The position numbers were made by a program, and so were the translations under genes. Below, one piece after another: positions 16,536 to 24,329 of a stretch of 64,000 nucleotides of DNA (within the stretch, counting starts at the first letter, position 1; each line of letters starts with the position of its first letter). The stretch is from NCBI RefSeq assembly GCF_988243305.1, contig NZ_OZ547136.1, one strand, 5' to 3'. Below the pieces are notes generated by a model, which made no database searches, had not been told where the DNA came from, and saw only the letters and a program-made list of their open reading frames with translations.

Positions 16536-19500
16536 TTACACCTTTTCCACATTCACAAGGAAGGACTTAAACTCTGGCGTCTGCGTGTTCGCATCACCAA
16601 CGAATGGCGTTAACGTATTGGCAATAAAGCCTTTTTTCGCAACACCTTCATAGCCCCAGTGAATCGGAATACCGATGGTATCGATATCTTTGCCGTTCGC
16701 TTTCAGCGTGCGAATACGTTTGGTCACCACCGCTTTGGCTTTGATATAGCCACGGTTGGAGGAGACTTTCACTGTATCGCCCTGGGCAATGCCAAGTTTA
16801 TTCGCCAGCGACTCACCGATTTCCACAAACTGCTCTGGTTGCAAAATCGCGTTCAACAGCGCGTGTTTGGTCCAGTAGTGGAAGTGCTCGGTCAGACGAT
16901 AGGTGGTTCCGACATACGGGAACTTATCGGCTTTACCCAATGCTTCGGCGTCGTCTTTAAAGATACGTGCAGCCGGGTTCGAGATAACGTTTGGATGCAG
17001 CGGGTTAGTTCCCAGCGGCGTTTCAAACGGCTCGTAGTGTTCCGGGAACGGACCTTCCGCCATCTTATCGAGGGCAAACAGACGCCCCATGCCTTCCTGC
17101 TGCATGATAAACGGCCCGACGCCGCTACCCGGAGGTGCTGCGCTGTAGTCCGGAATATCCCAGCCGGTCCACTTAGTGCCGTCCCATTTCAGCAACTGAC
17201 GCTTCGGATCCCACGGGTTACCCTGCGGATCTGCGGAGGCGCGGTTATACAGAATGCGGCGGTTAAGCGGCCATGCCCATGCCCAGCCCAGCGTGTTACC
17301 GAGGCCAGACGGATCGGCGTTATCACGACGCGCCATCTGGTTACCTTCTGGCGTCCAGCTACCGGCGAAAATCCAGCAGCCACAGGAGGTCGTACCGTCA
17401 TCGCGCAGTTGGGCGAACGAGCTAAGTTGTTGGCCTTTCTTGACGATAACCGCACCGGTTGCCGGATCGGTAATATCGGCCAGCGCCTTACCGTTGCTCT
17501 CCATCGCCACTTCTTCCGACTTCGGCTCATGCGGGATGGCGTAGTTCCAGGTCATGTTCAGCACCTGGTCCGGGTTCGCGCCACCCTGTTCGGCATACAT
17601 CTTGCGCAAGCGCAGGAAGATACCGGAGAGGATCTCGCCATCAGTCAGCGCAATCCCCGGGGCGTCCGCACCTTTCCAGTGCCACTGCAACCAGCGACCG
17701 GAGTTAACTATTGAACCGTTCTCTTCCGCGAAGCAGGTCGATGGCAGACGGAACACTTCGGTCTGGATCTTCGACGAGTCAACTTCGTTCAGCTCACCGT
17801 GGTTCTGCCAGAAGTTAGAGGTTTCAGTGTTCAGCGGGTCGATGGTGACGAGGAACTTCAGTTTCGACAGACAACCGATCACTTTGTTTTTGTTCGGGAA
17901 TGAGGCAACAGGGTTAAAGCCCTGGCAGATATAGCCATTGACTTTGCCCTCTTTCATCATCTCGAAGTATTGCAGGACGTCGTAGCCTTTATCCCACTTC
18001 GGCAACCAATCAAAGCCCCAGCTGTTTTCTGCCGTCGCTTTATCACCAAAGAAGGCCTTCATCATGGAGACGAAGAATTTCGGGTAATTGCCCCAGTAGT
18101 TAACCTGGCCTTCCAGCAGCGGTTTCGGCGTGTTGGCGGCAAGGTAGGTTTGCAGATCGGTCTGCTTCTCGCTTGGCAGCGTCATGTAACCTGGCAGGCT
18201 CTGCGACAGCAGCCCCAGGTCGGTCAGCCCCTGAATATTGGAGTGACCGCGCAGGGCGTTAACGCCGCCGCCAGCCATCCCCATATTGCCGAGCAGCAGC
18301 TGGATCATCGCCATCGTACGAATGTTTTGCGCACCAATGGAGTGTTGCGTCCAGCCGAGGGCGTAGAGGAACGACGCTGTTTTATCGTGAGCACTGGTTT
18401 CGGCGATGTATTCGCAGACTTTCAGGAACGCGTCTTTTGGCGTACCGCAGATGTTTTCAACCACATCTGGCGTATAACGGGAAACGTGCTGTTTCAGCAA
18501 GTTCCACACGCAACGCGGATGTTGCAGCGTGGTATCGCGTTTGGCGAAGCCGTTTTCGTCCAGTTCGTAAGTCCAGGAGGATTTATCGTACTTGCGTTTT
18601 TCCGCGTCGTAGCCGGTGAACAGGCCATCTTCAAAGCCGTAATCCTCACGCACGATCAGGCTGGCGTTGGTATAGGCCTCGGTGTATTCGCGGTTGAATT
18701 TTTCATTGTTCAGCAGGTACAGCAATACGCCTGACAGGAAAGCAATGTCAGTCCCGGAACGAATAGGGGCATAGTAGTCAGCCACCGCCGCCGTACGCGT
18801 AAAGCGAGGATCGATCACAATCAGCTTCGCGCCGTTGTGAATTTTGGCTTCCATCGCCCAGCGGAACCCGACCGGGTGAGCTTCAGCGGCATTACCGCCC
18901 ATCACCACGACGAGGTTGGCGTTCTTGATGTCGACCCAGTGGTTGGTCATCGCACCGCGACCAAATGTTGGAGCAAGACTTGCTACCGTTGGTCCGTGTC
19001 AGACACGCGCCTGGTTGTCGACCGCGAGCATCCCCAGCGCGCGGGAGAATTTTTGCGTTAAATAGCCGGTTTCGTTACTCGACGCGGAAGCACACAGCAT
19101 CCCGGTGGAGAGCCAGCGGTTAACGGTCACGCCTTCGGCGTTTTGCGCAATGTAGTTAGCATCGCGGTCTTCTTTCATCAGTTTGGCGATGCGATCAAAC
19201 GCCTCTTCCCAACTGATTTGCTGCCATTTATCAGAACCTGGCGCACGGTATTCCGGAAACTTCAGACGGCTTTCGGAGTGGATGAAATCCACCAGGCCAG
19301 CGCCTTTCGGACAAAGTGCACCGCGGTTGACCGGGTGATCCGGATCGCCTTCGATATGGAAGATAGATGCTTTGGCGTTTTTTGCTCCGTCACCGAGGCT
19401 GTACATCAACAGCCCACAGCCTACGGAACAATAGGTGCAGGTATTACGGGTTTCGCGGGTGCGCAGCAGTTTATACTGCCGGGTTTCCGCGAGTGCTACG

Positions 19501-19586
19501 CTGGGTGCAAAACCCAGTGCCGCTGCCGTGGTGCCTGCCATACCGCCAGCGCAGATCTTAAAGAACTGCCTTCTGCTGACCTGCAT
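16536..19586 (-). CDS. fdoG: Formate dehydrogenase-O catalytic subunit (selenoprotein; UGA at 18999-19001 read as Sec)
   Basis: ORF-track ORFs 18999..19586 and 16536..18950 are in the same frame, separated only by TGA; Tat signal SRRQFFK at N-terminus; sequence DNQARV-U-HGPTVASLAPTFGRGAMTNHW. Confidence 0.9.
18945..19001 (-). other. Selenocysteine UGA codon plus downstream SECIS-like hairpin
   Basis: mRNA immediately 3' of UGA: GGACCAACGGUAGCAAGUCUUGCUCCAACAUUUGGUC can fold as stem-loop. Confidence 0.6.
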
Positions 19587-19779
19587 GGATTGCTCCTTGT
19601 TTCGACATTGTCACGTCCCATTTACATTCGCTTGCTGCGTGTGCAGGGAGTGGGAGTTATTTTTCTTTGCGGAAGGGGCCGCAAAGGTCCAGAATTGGCT
19701 CAATTTCCCTCCATCCAGGAAGGGTTTGTAACAGAATACCATAATGTTGGTGTGTGTGTTCTTATCTGGTTAAGAGAAA

Positions 19780-20613
19780 GTGAAAAAAACACAGCAAAAA
19801 GAAATCGAAAATGTGACAAATATCACAGGTGTTCGTCAAATTGAGTTATGGCGGCGTGATGATTTACAACACCCACGGTTAGATGAGGTCGCGGAAGAAG
19901 TTCCCGTTGCGCTGGTCTACAACGGCATTTCGCATGTAGTGATGATGGCGTCGCCCAAAGACCTTGAGTACTTTGCGCTCGGTTTTTCGCTTTCCGAGGG
20001 GATAATAGAAAGTCCGCGCGATATCTTCGGCATGGATGTCGTTCCATCCTGTAATGGTCTTGAAGTACAAATTGAGCTTTCCAGCCGCCGCTTTATGGGG
20101 TTGAAGGAGCGCCGCCGGGCGCTGGCGGGACGTACGGGCTGTGGCGTATGCGGCGTGGAGCAACTTAATGACATCGGAAAACCGGTGCAGCCGCTACCGT
20201 TCACCCAGACGTTTGGTCTCAACAAACTGGATGATGCATTACGTCATCTCAACGATTTTCAGCCAGTGGGGCAGCTGACTGGTTGTACTCACGCCGCTGC
20301 CTGGATGTTGCCATCTGGCGAACTGGTCGGCGGGCATGAAGACGTGGGTCGCCATGTGGCGCTGGATAAACTGTTAGGCCGCCGGTCACAAGAAGGGGAA
20401 AGCTGGCAGCAAGGTGCGGTGCTGGTTTCCAGCCGTGCCAGTTATGAAATGGTGCAAAAGTCAGCGATGTGTGGCGTAGAGATTTTGTTTGCGGTGTCTG
20501 CCGCGACCACACTTGCTGTAGAAGTGGCTGAACGCTGTAATTTGACGCTGGTGGGCTTTTGTAAACCGGGCCGGGCAACGGTTTATACCCATCCGCAGCG
20601 TTTGAGCAATTAA
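19780..20613 (+). CDS. fdhD: Sulfurtransferase FdhD
   Basis: 277 aa; divergent from fdoG; synteny. Confidence 0.9.
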
Positions 20614-20621
20614 TTAAAATA

Positions 20622-20655
20622 AGTCCTGCGATATATATTAAATTGCAGGACTTAT
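20622..20655 (+). terminator. fdhD terminator hairpin (aagtcctgc...gcaggactt)
   Basis: 9-bp perfect stems flanking AT-rich loop, followed by T-rich run. Confidence 0.55.
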
Positions 20656-20662
20656 TCATTTC

Positions 20663-21325
20663 GTGAATTTTATTATTTTATTTATAGACAAAACGCATGT
20701 AGTGGCGTTAACGCCTGCGCTGCAACCTATTGATGGCGTGGCGGTGGGTTATATTGATGCTGCCGTGGCGTTGGGTAATACCATTAACGAAATGGATAAA
20801 TATTACACCCAGGAAAATTATAAAGACGATGCGTTTGCGAAAGGGAAAACGCTGCACCAGACATTCTTAAAAAATCTTGAAGCCTTTGAACCTGTAGCAG
20901 AATCTTATCATGCGGCGATTCAGGAAATTAACGATAAGCGCCAGCTTGCGGAACTGAAAAATATTGAACAAAGAGAAGGGAAAACATTCCACTACTACTC
21001 TCTGGCAGTCATGATTTCAGCGAAACAAATTAATAACCTGATTTCGCAAGAGAAGTTTGATGTTGATGCGGCAATGAAGAAAGTCTCTGAACTGGAAACG
21101 CTGGTGGCGCAGGCCAAAGAAGCGGATAAAGGCGGTATGAATTTCTCGTTCATTAATTCGGCAGACCAGTATCAACTCGAGGCTAAAAAATATGTTCGCC
21201 GCATCAGAGATAAAGTCCTGTACTCTGACTGGGATAAAGAGCAACTTCAGGACGCAAACTCAATCTGGATGGCCGAAGACTCATTTCCCGAGAGCATTAT
21301 GCGAGTACAACGAAATGGTCGATGA
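20663..21325 (+). CDS. yiiG: YiiG-like protein, apparently N-terminally truncated (possible pseudogene)
   Basis: Frame is closed by TAA at ~20639; ORF starts with GTG directly after fdhD terminator with no SD; K-12 YiiG recalled as ~351 aa. Confidence 0.45.
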   Translation: MNFIILFIDKTHVVALTPALQPIDGVAVGYIDAAVALGNTINEMDKYYTQENYKDDAFAKGKTLHQTFLKNLEAFEPVAESYHAAIQEINDKRQLAELKNIEQREGKTFHYYSLAVMISAKQINNLISQEKFDVDAAMKKVSELETLVAQAKEADKGGMNFSFINSADQYQLEAKKYVRRIRDKVLYSDWDKEQLQDANSIWMAEDSFPESIMRVQRNGR

Positions 21326-21745
21326 AATATTTCAGTCAATTGTAATCACGGGGCGGGTTTGTGATGAGCGCGGATATGTCACGAAGTCGTGACAATATAA
21401 AGCAGAGTGAAGGATAAATTTTGTGAATAAAGTATCATTATTTAATGATTTTGTGAATGTTTTAATGTCTCAGATAATTTGTTTAAGCGTTATTTATATT
21501 TGTGGCTTATGAGTCAGCGTGAATTATATCTAATATTTTTTACGATATTTGGTTAAAAACGGCACTATTGTTATATTCCTCACGTTCCAGGAAATCAACG
21601 GATTTACTCATATTATGCAGCGGGATACTATCCATCGGCCTGCTGAAGTTGGATTAAAAATTCGAAAGTGCACACCTTATATTTCTCTATATACGTATTC
21701 CTTTTGGAAAGCGTAGGGTCTCTTTTATTTCAGGGAACGTAAATA

Positions 21746-23140
21746 ATGAAAAAATCGACATTATCTTTAGCCATCGGTTTATTATTGGCATGTAGTACCG
21801 GAATGGCAAAAACACAGCATTTAACGCTGGAACAACGCATGGCATTGCTGGAAGAACGCCTGGAAGCTGCAGAAATGCGGGCAGCAAAAGCAGAGAGCCA
21901 GGTTAAACAGCTGCAGACACAACAAGCCGCTGAGATCCGCGAAATTAAGGCTGCCCAGGGCAATACGCCGGTAAATGGACAGGCAACGGCGGAATCTGCA
22001 AAGAAAAATTCCACCTCACCTAATCTTTTGCTCTCAGGTTATGGCGATTTAAAAATCTACGGCGACGTAGAATTTAATATGGATGCGGAAAGTAATCATG
22101 GCCTGCTGGCAATGACCAACGCTGATGTGAATAGCGATCCCACTAATGAACAGTGGAATCTCAATGGTCGTATTCTGTTAGGTTTTGATGGTATGCGAAA
22201 ACTGGATAATGGTTATTTCGCCGGGTTCTCCGCACAACCGCTGGGGGACATGCACGGTTCAGTAAATATCGATGATGCGGTATTCTTCTTTGGCAAAGAA
22301 AACGACTGGAAGGTCAAAGTAGGCCGTTTTGAAGCCTACGATATGTTCCCGCTGAATCAGGATACCTTTGTTGAACATTCCGGTAATACTGCGAATGATC
22401 TTTATGACGATGGCAGCGGTTATATCTATATGATGAAAGAGGGCCGCGGGCGCTCTAACGCTGGCGGTAATTTCCTCGTCAGCAAAAAACTTGATAACTG
22501 GTATTTTGAATTAAACACGTTACTTGAAGACGGAACATCTTTATATAATGACGGTAATTATCATGGACGCGATATGGAGCGGCAGAAAAATGTTGCTTAT
22601 CTGCGTCCAGTAATTGCCTGGTCGCCGACGGAAGAATTCACCGTTTCCGCAGCGATGGAAGCGAACGTAGTAAATAATGCTTATGGTTATACCGATAGCA
22701 AGGGTAATTTTGTCGATCAGTCCGATCGTACCGGCTATGGTATGAGCATGACCTGGAATGGCCTGAAAACGGATCCGGAAAATGGCGTCGTGGTTAATCT
22801 TAATACCGCCTATTTAGATGCTAATAATGAGAAAGATTTCACTGCCGGGATTAACGCGCTGTGGAAACGTTTCGAGCTGGGTTATATCTACGCGCACAAT
22901 AAGATTGATGAATTCAGCGGTGTAGTTTGTGATAACGACTGCTGGATTGATGATGAAGGGACGTACACCATTCACACCATTCATGCGTCTTATCAGTTCG
23001 CTAATGTGATGGATATGGAGAACTTTAATATTTACCTCGGGACGTATTACTCCATTCTGGATAGCGACGGTGATAAAAAACACGGTGATGATACTGATGA
23101 CCGTTACGGCGCACGTGTTCGCTTTAAATACTTCTTCTGA
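21746..23140 (+). CDS. Outer-membrane porin-like protein (signal peptide, coiled-coil N-domain, beta-barrel ending in Phe)
   Basis: N-terminal signal sequence MKKSTLSLAIGLLLACSTG; heptad-rich segment; alternating aromatic/polar pattern; C-terminal RFKYFF. Confidence 0.6.
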   Translation: MKKSTLSLAIGLLLACSTGMAKTQHLTLEQRMALLEERLEAAEMRAAKAESQVKQLQTQQAAEIREIKAAQGNTPVNGQATAESAKKNSTSPNLLLSGYGDLKIYGDVEFNMDAESNHGLLAMTNADVNSDPTNEQWNLNGRILLGFDGMRKLDNGYFAGFSAQPLGDMHGSVNIDDAVFFFGKENDWKVKVGRFEAYDMFPLNQDTFVEHSGNTANDLYDDGSGYIYMMKEGRGRSNAGGNFLVSKKLDNWYFELNTLLEDGTSLYNDGNYHGRDMERQKNVAYLRPVIAWSPTEEFTVSAAMEANVVNNAYGYTDSKGNFVDQSDRTGYGMSMTWNGLKTDPENGVVVNLNTAYLDANNEKDFTAGINALWKRFELGYIYAHNKIDEFSGVVCDNDCWIDDEGTYTIHTIHASYQFANVMDMENFNIYLGTYYSILDSDGDKKHGDDTDDRYGARVRFKYFF

Positions 23141-23180
23141 TGAAGGCGCGGTGCTGGATATTTTCCGGCACCGCAACTCA

Positions 23181-23495
23181 TTAAGGCAGGTAAAACACTT
23201 CTTGCAGCTCGCTACTGACTGGGCTGTTATCCGGGTTAGCTGGCATAACGTCGGTCATATATTTCCACCAACGTTGGCAAACATCAGTACTGGCTACCGT
23301 ATTCCACCGTTCTTCAGATTCAATCTCTACCGTGGCAAACAGCAGATTACGCGCTTTGTCGAGGTAAATGGCGTAGTTATGCGTACCGTGAGATTTCAAC
23401 ACTGCTTCCAGTTCCGGCCAGATTGGATTATGCCGACGCTGATACTCTTCGTGGGCGTCGGGGTTAACCTGCATGACAAAGGCTTTGCGGATCAT
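23181..23495 (-). CDS. rhaM: L-rhamnose mutarotase
   Basis: 104 aa, [22 protein letters not shown]; synteny. Confidence 0.9.
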
Positions 23496-23504
23496 GTTTG
23501 CTCC

Positions 23505-24329
23505 TTACAGCGCCAGCGCACTGGCGAGTGGTGTAACGCCGAAACGCTGGCCGAGCGCTATCAGCTCTTCACGGCTGATGGTCTGTTTCATGCCGCCCAT
23601 CGAATAAACCTTCACTAATACTTGTGCTGATTTTTCTGCGGTGTCGATTAAACCGAATGTTTCATCCAGTGTCGGACCGCTGCCGAAGACGCCGTGGAAG
23701 GGCCACAACACCAGCGAATGTTTTTGCATCTCTTGTGCGGTCGCCTGGCCGATTTCGTCCGTGCCGGGCACCATCCACGGCAGAATGCCAACGCCATCCG
23801 GGAACACTACCAGACACTCGGTGCTGCCTTCCCACAGTTGGCGAGTGAAGACCGCGGTGTCGTTTTCCAGCACGTAGGTGAGAGCGATCAGGTTAGTGGC
23901 GTGGCAGTGCATGATCACCCGATCTTTGCCGTTGGTGGCTTTAATGCGCTCGCAGTGGGAGAGAAAGTGAGCCGGAAGTTCGGATGTCGGGACGGCTTCG
24001 TTGGTTAACCCCCAGAGAATATGGTAGCCCGCGCCGTCGCTGTCGACTTTTACGACGCCTAAGTTAGCCGCAGGATCAAGCTGGACGTTACGAAAGAATT
24101 TGCCGGAGCCGGTGACAATAAACGGTGTATTTGCCAGTAAAGGCATGGGCTGGCTGAGCGGGATATAGCGCGGTTGTGCATGAAAGTTGCCGTGATAAGG
24201 CGCGATATCGGCGTCATCCAGGCGCAGCGTCAGGTTACCACCATTGCGCTCGTCCCAGCCTTTCAGCCAGGCGTCGGTGGTGGCTTTGATCATTCCCTGG
24301 ACAAACCAGGACTGGGTAATGTTTTGCAT
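23505..24329 (-). CDS. rhaD: Rhamnulose-1-phosphate aldolase
   Basis: 274 aa from [16 protein letters not shown]-track start at 24419 is an upstream extension. Confidence 0.9.

Follow-up and report, generated by a model that had tools for sequence, protein, structure and literature searches.

A yiiG remnant and a RafY-family porin gene beside rhaM: two deletions at an Escherichia coli locus

Gene content of the fdhD–rhaM interval

The window is a stretch of 64,000 nucleotides from contig NZ_OZ547136.1 (NCBI RefSeq assembly GCF_988243305.1). Between fdhD and rhaM, it carries the remnant of yiiG, followed by an intact porin gene (Table 1); both are features backed by homology and not chance open reading frames (ORFs). 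A previous examination of the letters alone (the sequence-only reading) had described a 464-residue ORF that follows an AT-rich stretch and directly precedes rhaM, and this layout is confirmed. The absence of the frv operon relative to yiiG–frvRXBA–rhaM, which we take to be the K-12 gene order, also holds, as no frv gene has a tblastn match anywhere in the 64-kb window. The same search of the window returned no match for rafR, rafA, rafB or rafD, and linkage of the porin to a raf catabolic cluster was not found there. Between the porin gene and rhaM, which converge, the inverted repeat probably serves as a two-way terminator.

Table 1. Features of the fdhD–rhaM interval in window coordinates. 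The end of fdhD, the hairpin behind it and the inverted repeat were read from the sequence.
Feature	Position	Strand	Remarks
fdhD	end at 20613		followed by the hairpin 20621–20653
fdhD terminator-like hairpin	20621..20653	+	AAGTCCTGC ... GCAGGACTT; just 5' of the spurious GTG
220-codon ORF	20663..21325	+	mechanical call; yiiG-derived only over 20702–21325
Deletion 1 junction	20702..20709		one GTGGCGTT left of two 8-bp direct repeats; 479 bp lost
yiiG remnant: +1 frameshift close to the 3' end	21284..21296	+	TTTCCCGAGAGC vs TTTCCACGAGC in intact alleles
Deletion 2 junction	21325..21326		4,791 bp lost
Former divergent frvA–porin intergenic region	21326..21745		AT-rich; now the porin upstream region; homologous to L002 9001–9459
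Promoter-like site	21654..21683	+	TTAAAA-18-TATATT; putative, the scan as a whole being not above chance
Leader stem-loop	21693..21714	+	ACGTATTCC-TTTT-GGAAAGCGT; 32 nt before the porin ATG
RafY-family glycoporin gene, intact	21746..23140	+	464 aa; signal peptide ~1–21, helix 28–71, barrel 101–463, end ...RFKYFF
10-bp G+C-rich inverted repeat	23148..23174		GCGGTGCTGG / CCGGCACCGC; between convergent porin and rhaM
rhaM	23181..23495	-	directly after the porin gene; its constant downstream neighbour in all genera examined

This gene-order variant, referred to here as arrangement C, is ordinary and known, being common in E. coli and already annotated. Among 5,426 complete E. coli genomes, it is found in about 1,165 (21%), 042 and JJ1886 (ST131) among them; the entire 3.2-kb arrangement was recovered from 1,166 and an intact deletion 2 junction from 1,163. 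The frvRXBA genes are present in 4,185 of these genomes and a copy of the porin gene in 2,557. Outside arrangement C, about 340 genomes have no detectable yiiG 5' segment, and the one such case that was checked is an IS1-mediated deletion reaching from yiiG to rhaR. A literature search on frv deletion returned nothing relevant.

The porin and its upstream region

The 464-residue product matches the whole of the Pfam profile PF16966 (Porin_8; positions 1–372 of 372, residues 104–464) with an E-value of 3e-154 and a score of 514 bits (cut-off 25). It is identical to plasmid RafY, the rafRABD-linked copy in locus L006, at 358 of 464 positions (77%) and equal to it in length. By sequence, the porin is thus assigned to the RafY glycoporin family (PF16966 / TCDB 1.B.15). 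The signal-like N-terminus (MKKSTLSLAIGLLLACSTGMA/K) predicts export via a Sec signal peptide, and the C-terminus (...KYFF) ends on an aromatic residue. The AlphaFold model (pLDDT 67.5, with a conserved segment at 197–237 below 50) contains the N-terminal helix and 16 long beta strands. Its best Foldseek matches are 16-strand trimeric porins (E 1e-11); the sequence itself has no meaningful match in the PDB (best E 0.76). The predicted plan is therefore a periplasmic, coiled-coil-like N-terminal helix joined to a 16-strand barrel like those of the trimeric general porins, which agrees with the secreted coiled-coil and beta-barrel protein of the sequence-only reading. By analogy with plasmid RafY and Klebsiella GlyP, the protein may form a wide channel through which oligosaccharides and other carbohydrates diffuse.

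The G+C content is 0.31–0.38 across the 420 bp upstream of the porin gene. A scan of promoters and terminators gave counts no higher than those in shuffled sequence. A TATAT-like box lies 7–10 nt before the leader hairpin in the Citrobacter and Kluyvera rows of the leader alignment. The position of this stem-loop is conserved across genera, with differing sequence. When each leader was folded individually, with shuffles and positional controls, the mean z was -2.0 and folding was significant in 17 of 31 orthologues, against z of about 0 and 1–3 of 31 in three control windows. RNAalifold found no consensus on the MAFFT alignment of the porin leaders, because the register of the hairpin shifts between genera, and a search of positions 19500–24000 against Rfam returned no family. 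It is possible, if tentative, that the stem-loop shared by the rhaM-linked porin genes of Enterobacteriaceae sits at the very 5' end of the transcript and is an mRNA stabiliser like that of ompA, or a regulatory element, and that the gene, retained by strong purifying selection in E. coli lineages without raf and frv, which they lost, encodes a conditionally expressed wide-channel porin. If so, such a stand-alone porin could matter for carbohydrate competition in the gut or for antibiotic entry, as reported for Klebsiella GlyP.

The porin is under strong purifying selection, with dN/dS values of 0.05–0.09 among E. coli copies and 0.04 in the comparison with Kluyvera. The lack of raf and frv genes in the window suggests another reading, in which the porin gene is silent and being lost, a relic without the catabolic genes that it once served. 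The gene is missing from about half of E. coli, is frameshifted in one arrangement-C strain (L004) and is interrupted by IS5 in strain EC05 (H13), and the very AT-rich upstream region would fit silencing. However, the low dN/dS also holds between two arrangement-C genomes, the gene is intact in the window and in seven of eight arrangement-C relatives, and both the leader hairpin and the ribosome-binding region are conserved. A relic is thus the unlikely reading of this gene.

Two deletions, the yiiG remnant and the ancestry of the porin

The differences between the window and the intact state, represented by locus L002, come down to two deletions, which were mapped by blastn and side-by-side sequence. 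Deletion 1 removed the promoter and upstream region of yiiG, its start codon, the lipoprotein signal and codons 1–138. Deletion 2 corresponds to L002 4210–9000 and took the last 19 bp of yiiG, all four frv genes (frvR, frvX, frvB and frvA) and a further 18 bp ahead of the frvA start codon; the TGA stop of the 220-codon ORF (21323–21325) was formed at its junction. The seven arrangement-C sequences that were aligned (the window, L001, L004, 042, M1/5, APEC O2-211 and ChlosBP-23-1) all share identical junctions for both deletions. C4 aligns with the window over 3.9 kb without a gap, and JJ1886 has the gene layout of the window and an unbroken match across junction 1.

The ancestral order would have been fdhD – yiiG – frvRXBA – porin – rhaM, with the porin divergent from frv and convergent with rhaM. 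As to the order and mechanism of the two events, which we infer, deletion 1 looks like slippage or illegitimate recombination between two GTGGCGTT repeats, and deletion 2 has little or no homology at its junction. Very probably, these two deletions produced the derived arrangement, and the porin has come down by vertical inheritance at this site, where it now stands alone without raf or frv partners.

What is left of yiiG is a decaying pseudogene, as had been suspected. The 220-codon ORF does open with GTG after the fdhD terminator-like hairpin, which is kept in all arrangement-C loci, and its frame is closed upstream by a TAA (20639–20641), as first described. However, this GTG and the first 13 codons are former fdhD–yiiG intergenic DNA, and the apparent start is an accident of ORF calling. 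The Pfam DUF3829 profile is matched with an E-value of 3.7e-65, only over positions 65–271 of 285, and in the alignment to full-length YiiG that had been proposed as a check, only residues 139–337 of 351 are matched. A full-length YiiG of about 351 residues with its N-terminal lipoprotein signal (…LTGC) is absent, since residues 1–138 and the upstream region are deleted. The native frame to the stop codon is not intact either, owing to the +1 frameshift and the loss of the last 19 bp. This frameshift is common to the window, L001, 042 and APEC O2-211 and is absent from the type of remnant that M1/5 and JJ1886 carry. Other remnants bear additional, independent lesions, namely a 135-bp deletion (L004, M1/5 and ChlosBP-23-1), a -1 change (042) and a +3 change (APEC O2-211). 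PGAP labels the equivalent yiiG a pseudogene in eight of eight relatives.

The frame is nevertheless open for 220 codons, the exact 220-residue protein is recorded on 222 contigs, with a protein annotation by some submitters, and dN/dS in the remnant is 0.15–0.25 rather than close to 1, also when two lineages with the remnant are compared, albeit from small counts (7–9 non-synonymous and 8–9 synonymous, fewer than 20 substitutions per comparison). These observations could be taken to mean that the ORF encodes a working, shortened YiiG-family protein from a new GTG start. Recombination or a recent origin could also lie behind the low ratio. A working protein is very improbable: the lipoprotein signal and lipobox by which full-length YiiG is exported are missing, the putative start directly follows a terminator-like hairpin with no Shine–Dalgarno-like purine run seen before it, the C-terminus is frameshifted, sister lineages carry different added lesions, and all eight relatives examined have a pseudogene call. 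The decaying pseudogene should carry no protein annotation.

The sequence-only reading had further proposed that laterally acquired cargo had taken the place of frv. The porin gene occurs together with an intact yiiG–frvRXBA in O157-like and other E. coli (L002 and L005) and in a divergent Escherichia sp. (L015). Orthologues are found in at least eight other enterobacterial genera and adjoin rhaM in Kluyvera, Citrobacter, Klebsiella, Raoultella, Enterobacter, Trabulsiella, Pseudocitrobacter and Superficieibacter; they are 66–85% identical, a level similar to that of the flanking FdhD (79–91%). The gene is a conserved one, which the sequence-only reading itself had named as evidence against its proposal, and the lateral-cargo idea is not supported. 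Linkage to raf genes at the equivalent locus is present in Klebsiella, Raoultella and Enterobacter. Replacement of frv in a single event by a porin cassette is hardly credible and already contradicted, for although K-12 has frv without the porin and the window the porin without frv, although the porin and its upstream region are lower in G+C (0.31–0.48) than the flanks (about 0.55), and although a 77%-identical copy resides on plasmids with rafRABD, the state in which both coexist is converted into that of the window by a clean 4.8-kb deletion, the orthologues beside rhaM show core-like divergence, no transposase, integrase or repeat was found flanking the porin gene, and G+C is equally low in yiiG, which nobody considers foreign.

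K-12 itself retains no remnant of the porin; its frvA–rhaM spacer is about 80% identical over 190 bp and then unrelated. Because the porin coexists with frv in other E. coli and adjoins rhaM in at least eight other genera, K-12 is, on parsimony, a strain that lost the porin, and its order would be derived in this respect. The K-12 gene order is a poor guide to ancestry here: K-12 lost the porin, and strains such as 042 and JJ1886 lost frv and yiiG.

The idea that the porin is functionally tied to the frv operon, from which it is divergent, was considered and rejected, because three unrelated genes intervene between frvA and the porin in Citrobacter and Kluyvera (AzlD-like and AzlC-like ORFs and a helix-turn-helix regulator, judged by size and N-terminal sequence) and rafB is the upstream neighbour in Klebsiella; adjacency to rhaM alone is constant. 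Locus L008 ("E. coli E69") has only the porin–rhaM segment in common with E. coli.

Comparison with known systems

The arrangement has little significance beyond correct annotation. YiiG of E. coli K-12 is a 351-residue DUF3829 lipoprotein of unknown function. The remnant aligns with its residues 139–337 at about 94% identity, but it is without the signal peptide, the lipobox and the first 138 residues, and its C-terminus is frameshifted and truncated.

The sucrose porin ScrY combines an N-terminal coiled coil with a barrel. The window porin resembles it in having a predicted signal peptide, a periplasmic coiled-coil extension and a sugar-related barrel. In contrast to ScrY, its model folds best, according to Foldseek, like the 16-strand general porins, chitoporin and OprB, and not like the 18-strand LamB/ScrY class.

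RafY is described as the glycoporin of the raffinose plasmid pRSD2 (Ulmke et al. 1997; Andersen et al. 1998, as cited in PMC4827864 and PMC4809568) and belongs to TCDB family 1.B.15, with 16 predicted strands (PMC4827864). The two proteins share the length of 464 residues, 77% end-to-end identity, the N-terminal helical segment and the ...RFKYFF end. The window porin differs in being chromosomal, beside rhaM and without rafR, rafA, rafB and rafD. Because the two genes have diverged at synonymous sites (dS ~0.94), the chromosomal gene forms a lineage of its own and does not stem from a plasmid that integrated recently. The copy in O157, annotated as rafY2 (PMC4809568) and as "carbohydrate porin" by PGAP in O157:H7, is the same gene in the same position beside rhaM, with 98.5% amino-acid identity. 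There, however, the porin is divergent from an intact frvABXR with a full-length yiiG beyond, whereas in the window frv is deleted and yiiG truncated.

In extraintestinal pathogenic lineages, the retained RafY-type porin could offer carbohydrates or drugs an alternative way in. GlyP, a chromosomal porin of the RafY family, is an alternative carbohydrate porin in K. pneumoniae and is considered to let through larger carbohydrates than the major porins do (bioRxiv 10.64898/2026.03.29.715108). It is the last gene of a LacI-type-regulated operon with a permease and a hydrolase (bioRxiv 10.64898/2026.03.29.715108), whereas the window porin stands without such partners. The comparable paralogues in Klebsiella and Raoultella reach only about 60% identity.

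The fdhD–rhaM interval and its three arrangements

Two open reading frames (ORFs) separate fdhD from rhaM in the window, and the sequence-only reading had described them accurately, since ORFs, Pfam assignments and tblastn results all agree with it. The first is assigned to DUF3829 (YiiG family), of which it covers only profile positions 65-271 of 285, and its tblastn match to YiiG is confined to residues 139-337. The second matches the entire profile of PF16966 ("porin-like glycoporin RafY", E 3e-154). No tblastn match to the frv or raf genes was found anywhere in the 64-kb window.

Features of the fdhD–rhaM interval (window coordinates)
Feature	Position	Strand	Remarks
fdhD	19780-20613		left border of interval
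Hairpin	20621-20653		10 nt before the GTG of the 220-codon ORF
In-frame TAA	20639-20641		closes the frame upstream of the 220-codon ORF
220-codon ORF (yiiG remnant)	20663-21325	+	GTG start
GTGGCGTT	20702-20709		single copy surviving deletion 1
+1 frameshift	~21284-21296		last ~14 residues altered
Junction of deletion 2	21325/21326		TGA stop of the 220-codon ORF arises here
Promoter-like site	21654-21683		TTAAAA-18-TATATT
Leader stem-loop	21693-21714		within the 44 nt at -62 to -19 relative to the porin start
464-codon ORF (porin)	21746-23140	+	preceded by ~420 bp of 31-38% G+C
rhaM	23181-23495	-	right border of interval

Three arrangements of this interval occur in E. coli. Arrangement A, K-12-like, reads fdhD, yiiG (351 aa), frvRXBA, rhaM, without the porin. 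Arrangement B, found in an O157-like locus (L002) and a pig isolate (L005), reads fdhD, yiiG, frvRXBA, porin, rhaM, with frvA and the porin divergent across a 477-bp spacer. Arrangement C, that of the window, L001, L004 and others, reads fdhD, yiiG remnant, porin, rhaM.

Among 5,426 complete E. coli genomes, the whole 3.2-kb stretch of arrangement C was present in 1,166 (~21%) and the junction of its second deletion in 1,163. The frvRXBA genes were present in 4,185, the yiiG 5' segment in 3,882 and a porin copy in 2,557, a minority of these being plasmid or other rafY copies of 80-90% identity. Arrangement B is estimated at about one-fifth to one-quarter of the genomes and arrangement A at about one-half. 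Arrangement C is a common variant for which annotation already exists; its members include strain 042 (phylogroup D), ST131 strain JJ1886 and M1/5 (both B2), APEC O2-211 and the bovine strain C4. About 340 genomes have no detectable yiiG 5' segment, yet do not carry this arrangement. In E. coli PI12 (L091 6904-8436), an IS1 links a truncated rhaR to the sequence directly following fdhD, with loss of yiiG, frv, rhaM, rhaD, rhaA, rhaB and rhaS.

Two deletions and the decay of yiiG

Alignment shows arrangement C to be arrangement B minus two deletions. Deletion 1, which lies between two copies of GTGGCGTT (L002 3108-3115 and 3587-3594), took away 479 bp: ~65 bp of sequence preceding yiiG, and the gene's first 138 codons, among them those for the lipoprotein signal MKRNLLSSAIIVAIMSLGLTGC present in K-12 YiiG. 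Deletion 2 removed 4,791 bp (L002 4210-9000), comprising the last 19 bp of yiiG, the entire frvR, frvX, frvB and frvA genes and the 18 bp that precede the frvA start codon. Both junctions are exactly identical in all seven arrangement-C sequences aligned, which means a single origin for each. C4 matches the window without gaps across 3.9 kb, and JJ1886 has the same layout, its match running uninterrupted through junction 1. The fdhD–rhaM interval is prone to deletions.

What is left of yiiG is a decaying pseudogene, because it lacks the export signal and a ribosome-binding site, is frameshifted and has acquired independent lesions. These differ among the aligned arrangement-C lineages: in L004, M1/5 and ChlosBP-23-1 the remnant has a 135-bp deletion, 042 has a -1 frameshift, APEC O2-211 a +3 insertion and the group of the window the +1 frameshift. 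The NCBI pipeline PGAP labels the remnant a pseudogene in 8 of 8 relatives. Its dN/dS (0.15-0.25), based on fewer than 20 substitutions, is only slightly above that of intact alleles (0.08-0.20). Full-length alleles show a 15-bp length variant in the 5' region (spacing 669 vs 684 bp, L002 3173-3586), probably within the Pro/Ala-rich linker after the lipobox.

Half of the interpretation in the sequence-only reading holds: the frv operon, relative to K-12, has been deleted and yiiG is a pseudogene, but its view of the porin as laterally acquired cargo replacing frv does not stand. Arrangement B and a divergent Escherichia sp. (L015) carry the porin together with frv, and the porin has rhaM-adjacent orthologues in eight other genera.

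Ancestry of the porin at the rhaM site

When one genome of each species was scanned, porin orthologues of 66-85% identity were found directly upstream of rhaM and in convergent orientation to it in Kluyvera, Citrobacter, Klebsiella, Raoultella, Enterobacter, Trabulsiella, Pseudocitrobacter and Superficieibacter. C. braakii, one C. amalonaticus genome (L025), Kluyvera and Trabulsiella have the order frvRXBA, porin, rhaM, and two Enterobacter genomes have frvRXBA, porin, rafRAB. The nearest orthologues outside Escherichia (Citrobacter, Kluyvera) share 79-85% identity, comparable to the 80-91% of the neighbouring FdhD, as vertical descent would predict. The most parsimonious reading is that the rhaM site carried the porin ancestrally and that K-12 lost it.

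No porin remnant is present in the 300-bp frvA–rhaM spacer of K-12 (L003 14289-14588 vs L002 8983-10894). Its first 190 bp are ~80% identical to arrangement B, far under the usual 96-98%, the next ~110 bp bear no relation to it and the rhaM terminator differs; the mechanism of the loss is therefore not visible.

On Klebsiella, Raoultella and Enterobacter chromosomes, rafR, rafA and rafB lie directly beside the rhaM-linked porin (order rafR, rafA, rafB, porin, rhaM; L016, L017, L022, L023 ~2700-9400; L019, L028), which suggests a chromosomal locus of this kind as the source from which plasmids captured the raf operon together with rafY. In Citrobacter and Kluyvera, three extra ORFs of ~107, 219 and 182 aa, not found in Escherichia, lie between frvA and the porin (L020 6032-7664; equivalents in L013, L012, L014, L029); judged only by size and N-terminal sequence, they resemble AzlD, AzlC and a helix-turn-helix regulator. 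In CP089930.1 ("E. coli E69", L008 7564-9750), the porin–rhaM segment alone is homologous to E. coli (~90% DNA identity; porin dS 0.41 vs the window) and neither flank is related to the fdhD/frv and rhaD surroundings normal for this site; the genome is either rearranged or that of a divergent Escherichia lineage.

The porin and its leader

The porin evolves under strong purifying selection, with a dN/dS of 0.05-0.09 in comparisons with other E. coli alleles, one of them from a second arrangement-C genome, and of 0.04 in the comparison with Kluyvera. Of eight arrangement-C relatives, seven carry an intact gene. It is frameshifted in the O25:H1 strain CU39ES-1 (L004 4310-5705) and broken by an IS5-family element in strain EC05; occasional loss therefore continues.

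The protein is already known, an identical sequence being deposited as "carbohydrate porin", and the O157:H7 copy has been named rafY2 (PMC4809568). A sequence search of the PDB detected no solved structure. An AlphaFold model built with 57 orthologues, of moderate confidence (pLDDT 67.5, pTM 0.63), has a signal helix (3-19), a single long helix (28-71) and 16 long strands (101-463), in agreement with the 16 predicted for TCDB family 1.B.15 (PMC4827864). Its top Foldseek matches in the PDB are 16-strand trimeric porins (BpsOmp38, chitoporin VhChiP, OprB, OprP, OmpF/OmpU; E ~1e-11, target-normalised TM 0.5-0.66).

Plasmid RafY of E. coli, encoded downstream of rafRABD, is identical in length to the window porin and 77% identical in sequence; a study cited in PMC4827864 calls RafY, in its title, a general diffusion pore, not a specific sugar channel. 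GlyP, a RafY-family porin of K. pneumoniae, is silent until a LacI-type regulator mutates, and then makes strains without the major porins fitter in a carbohydrate-dependent manner (bioRxiv 10.64898/2026.03.29.715108). By analogy, the product of the window gene is most likely a wide-channel porin whose expression is conditional.

The porin leader folds as a stem-loop, and most rhaM-linked orthologues (L007-L037) have one of 5-10 bp at that position; its sequence differs completely between genera while the pairing is kept. Against dinucleotide shuffles, the mean z-score was -2.0 and 17 of 31 sequences, related orthologues whose counts overstate independence, fell within the most stable 5%, vs z near 0 and 1-3 of 31 in three adjacent control windows. 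No Rfam family was found for it. From the promoter-like site upstream, the transcript start would fall ~3 nt before the stem, and the stem-loop may be 5'-terminal in the mRNA. The ompA mRNA carries a stabilising hairpin at its 5' terminus, and the placement of the porin leader stem-loop would be similar.
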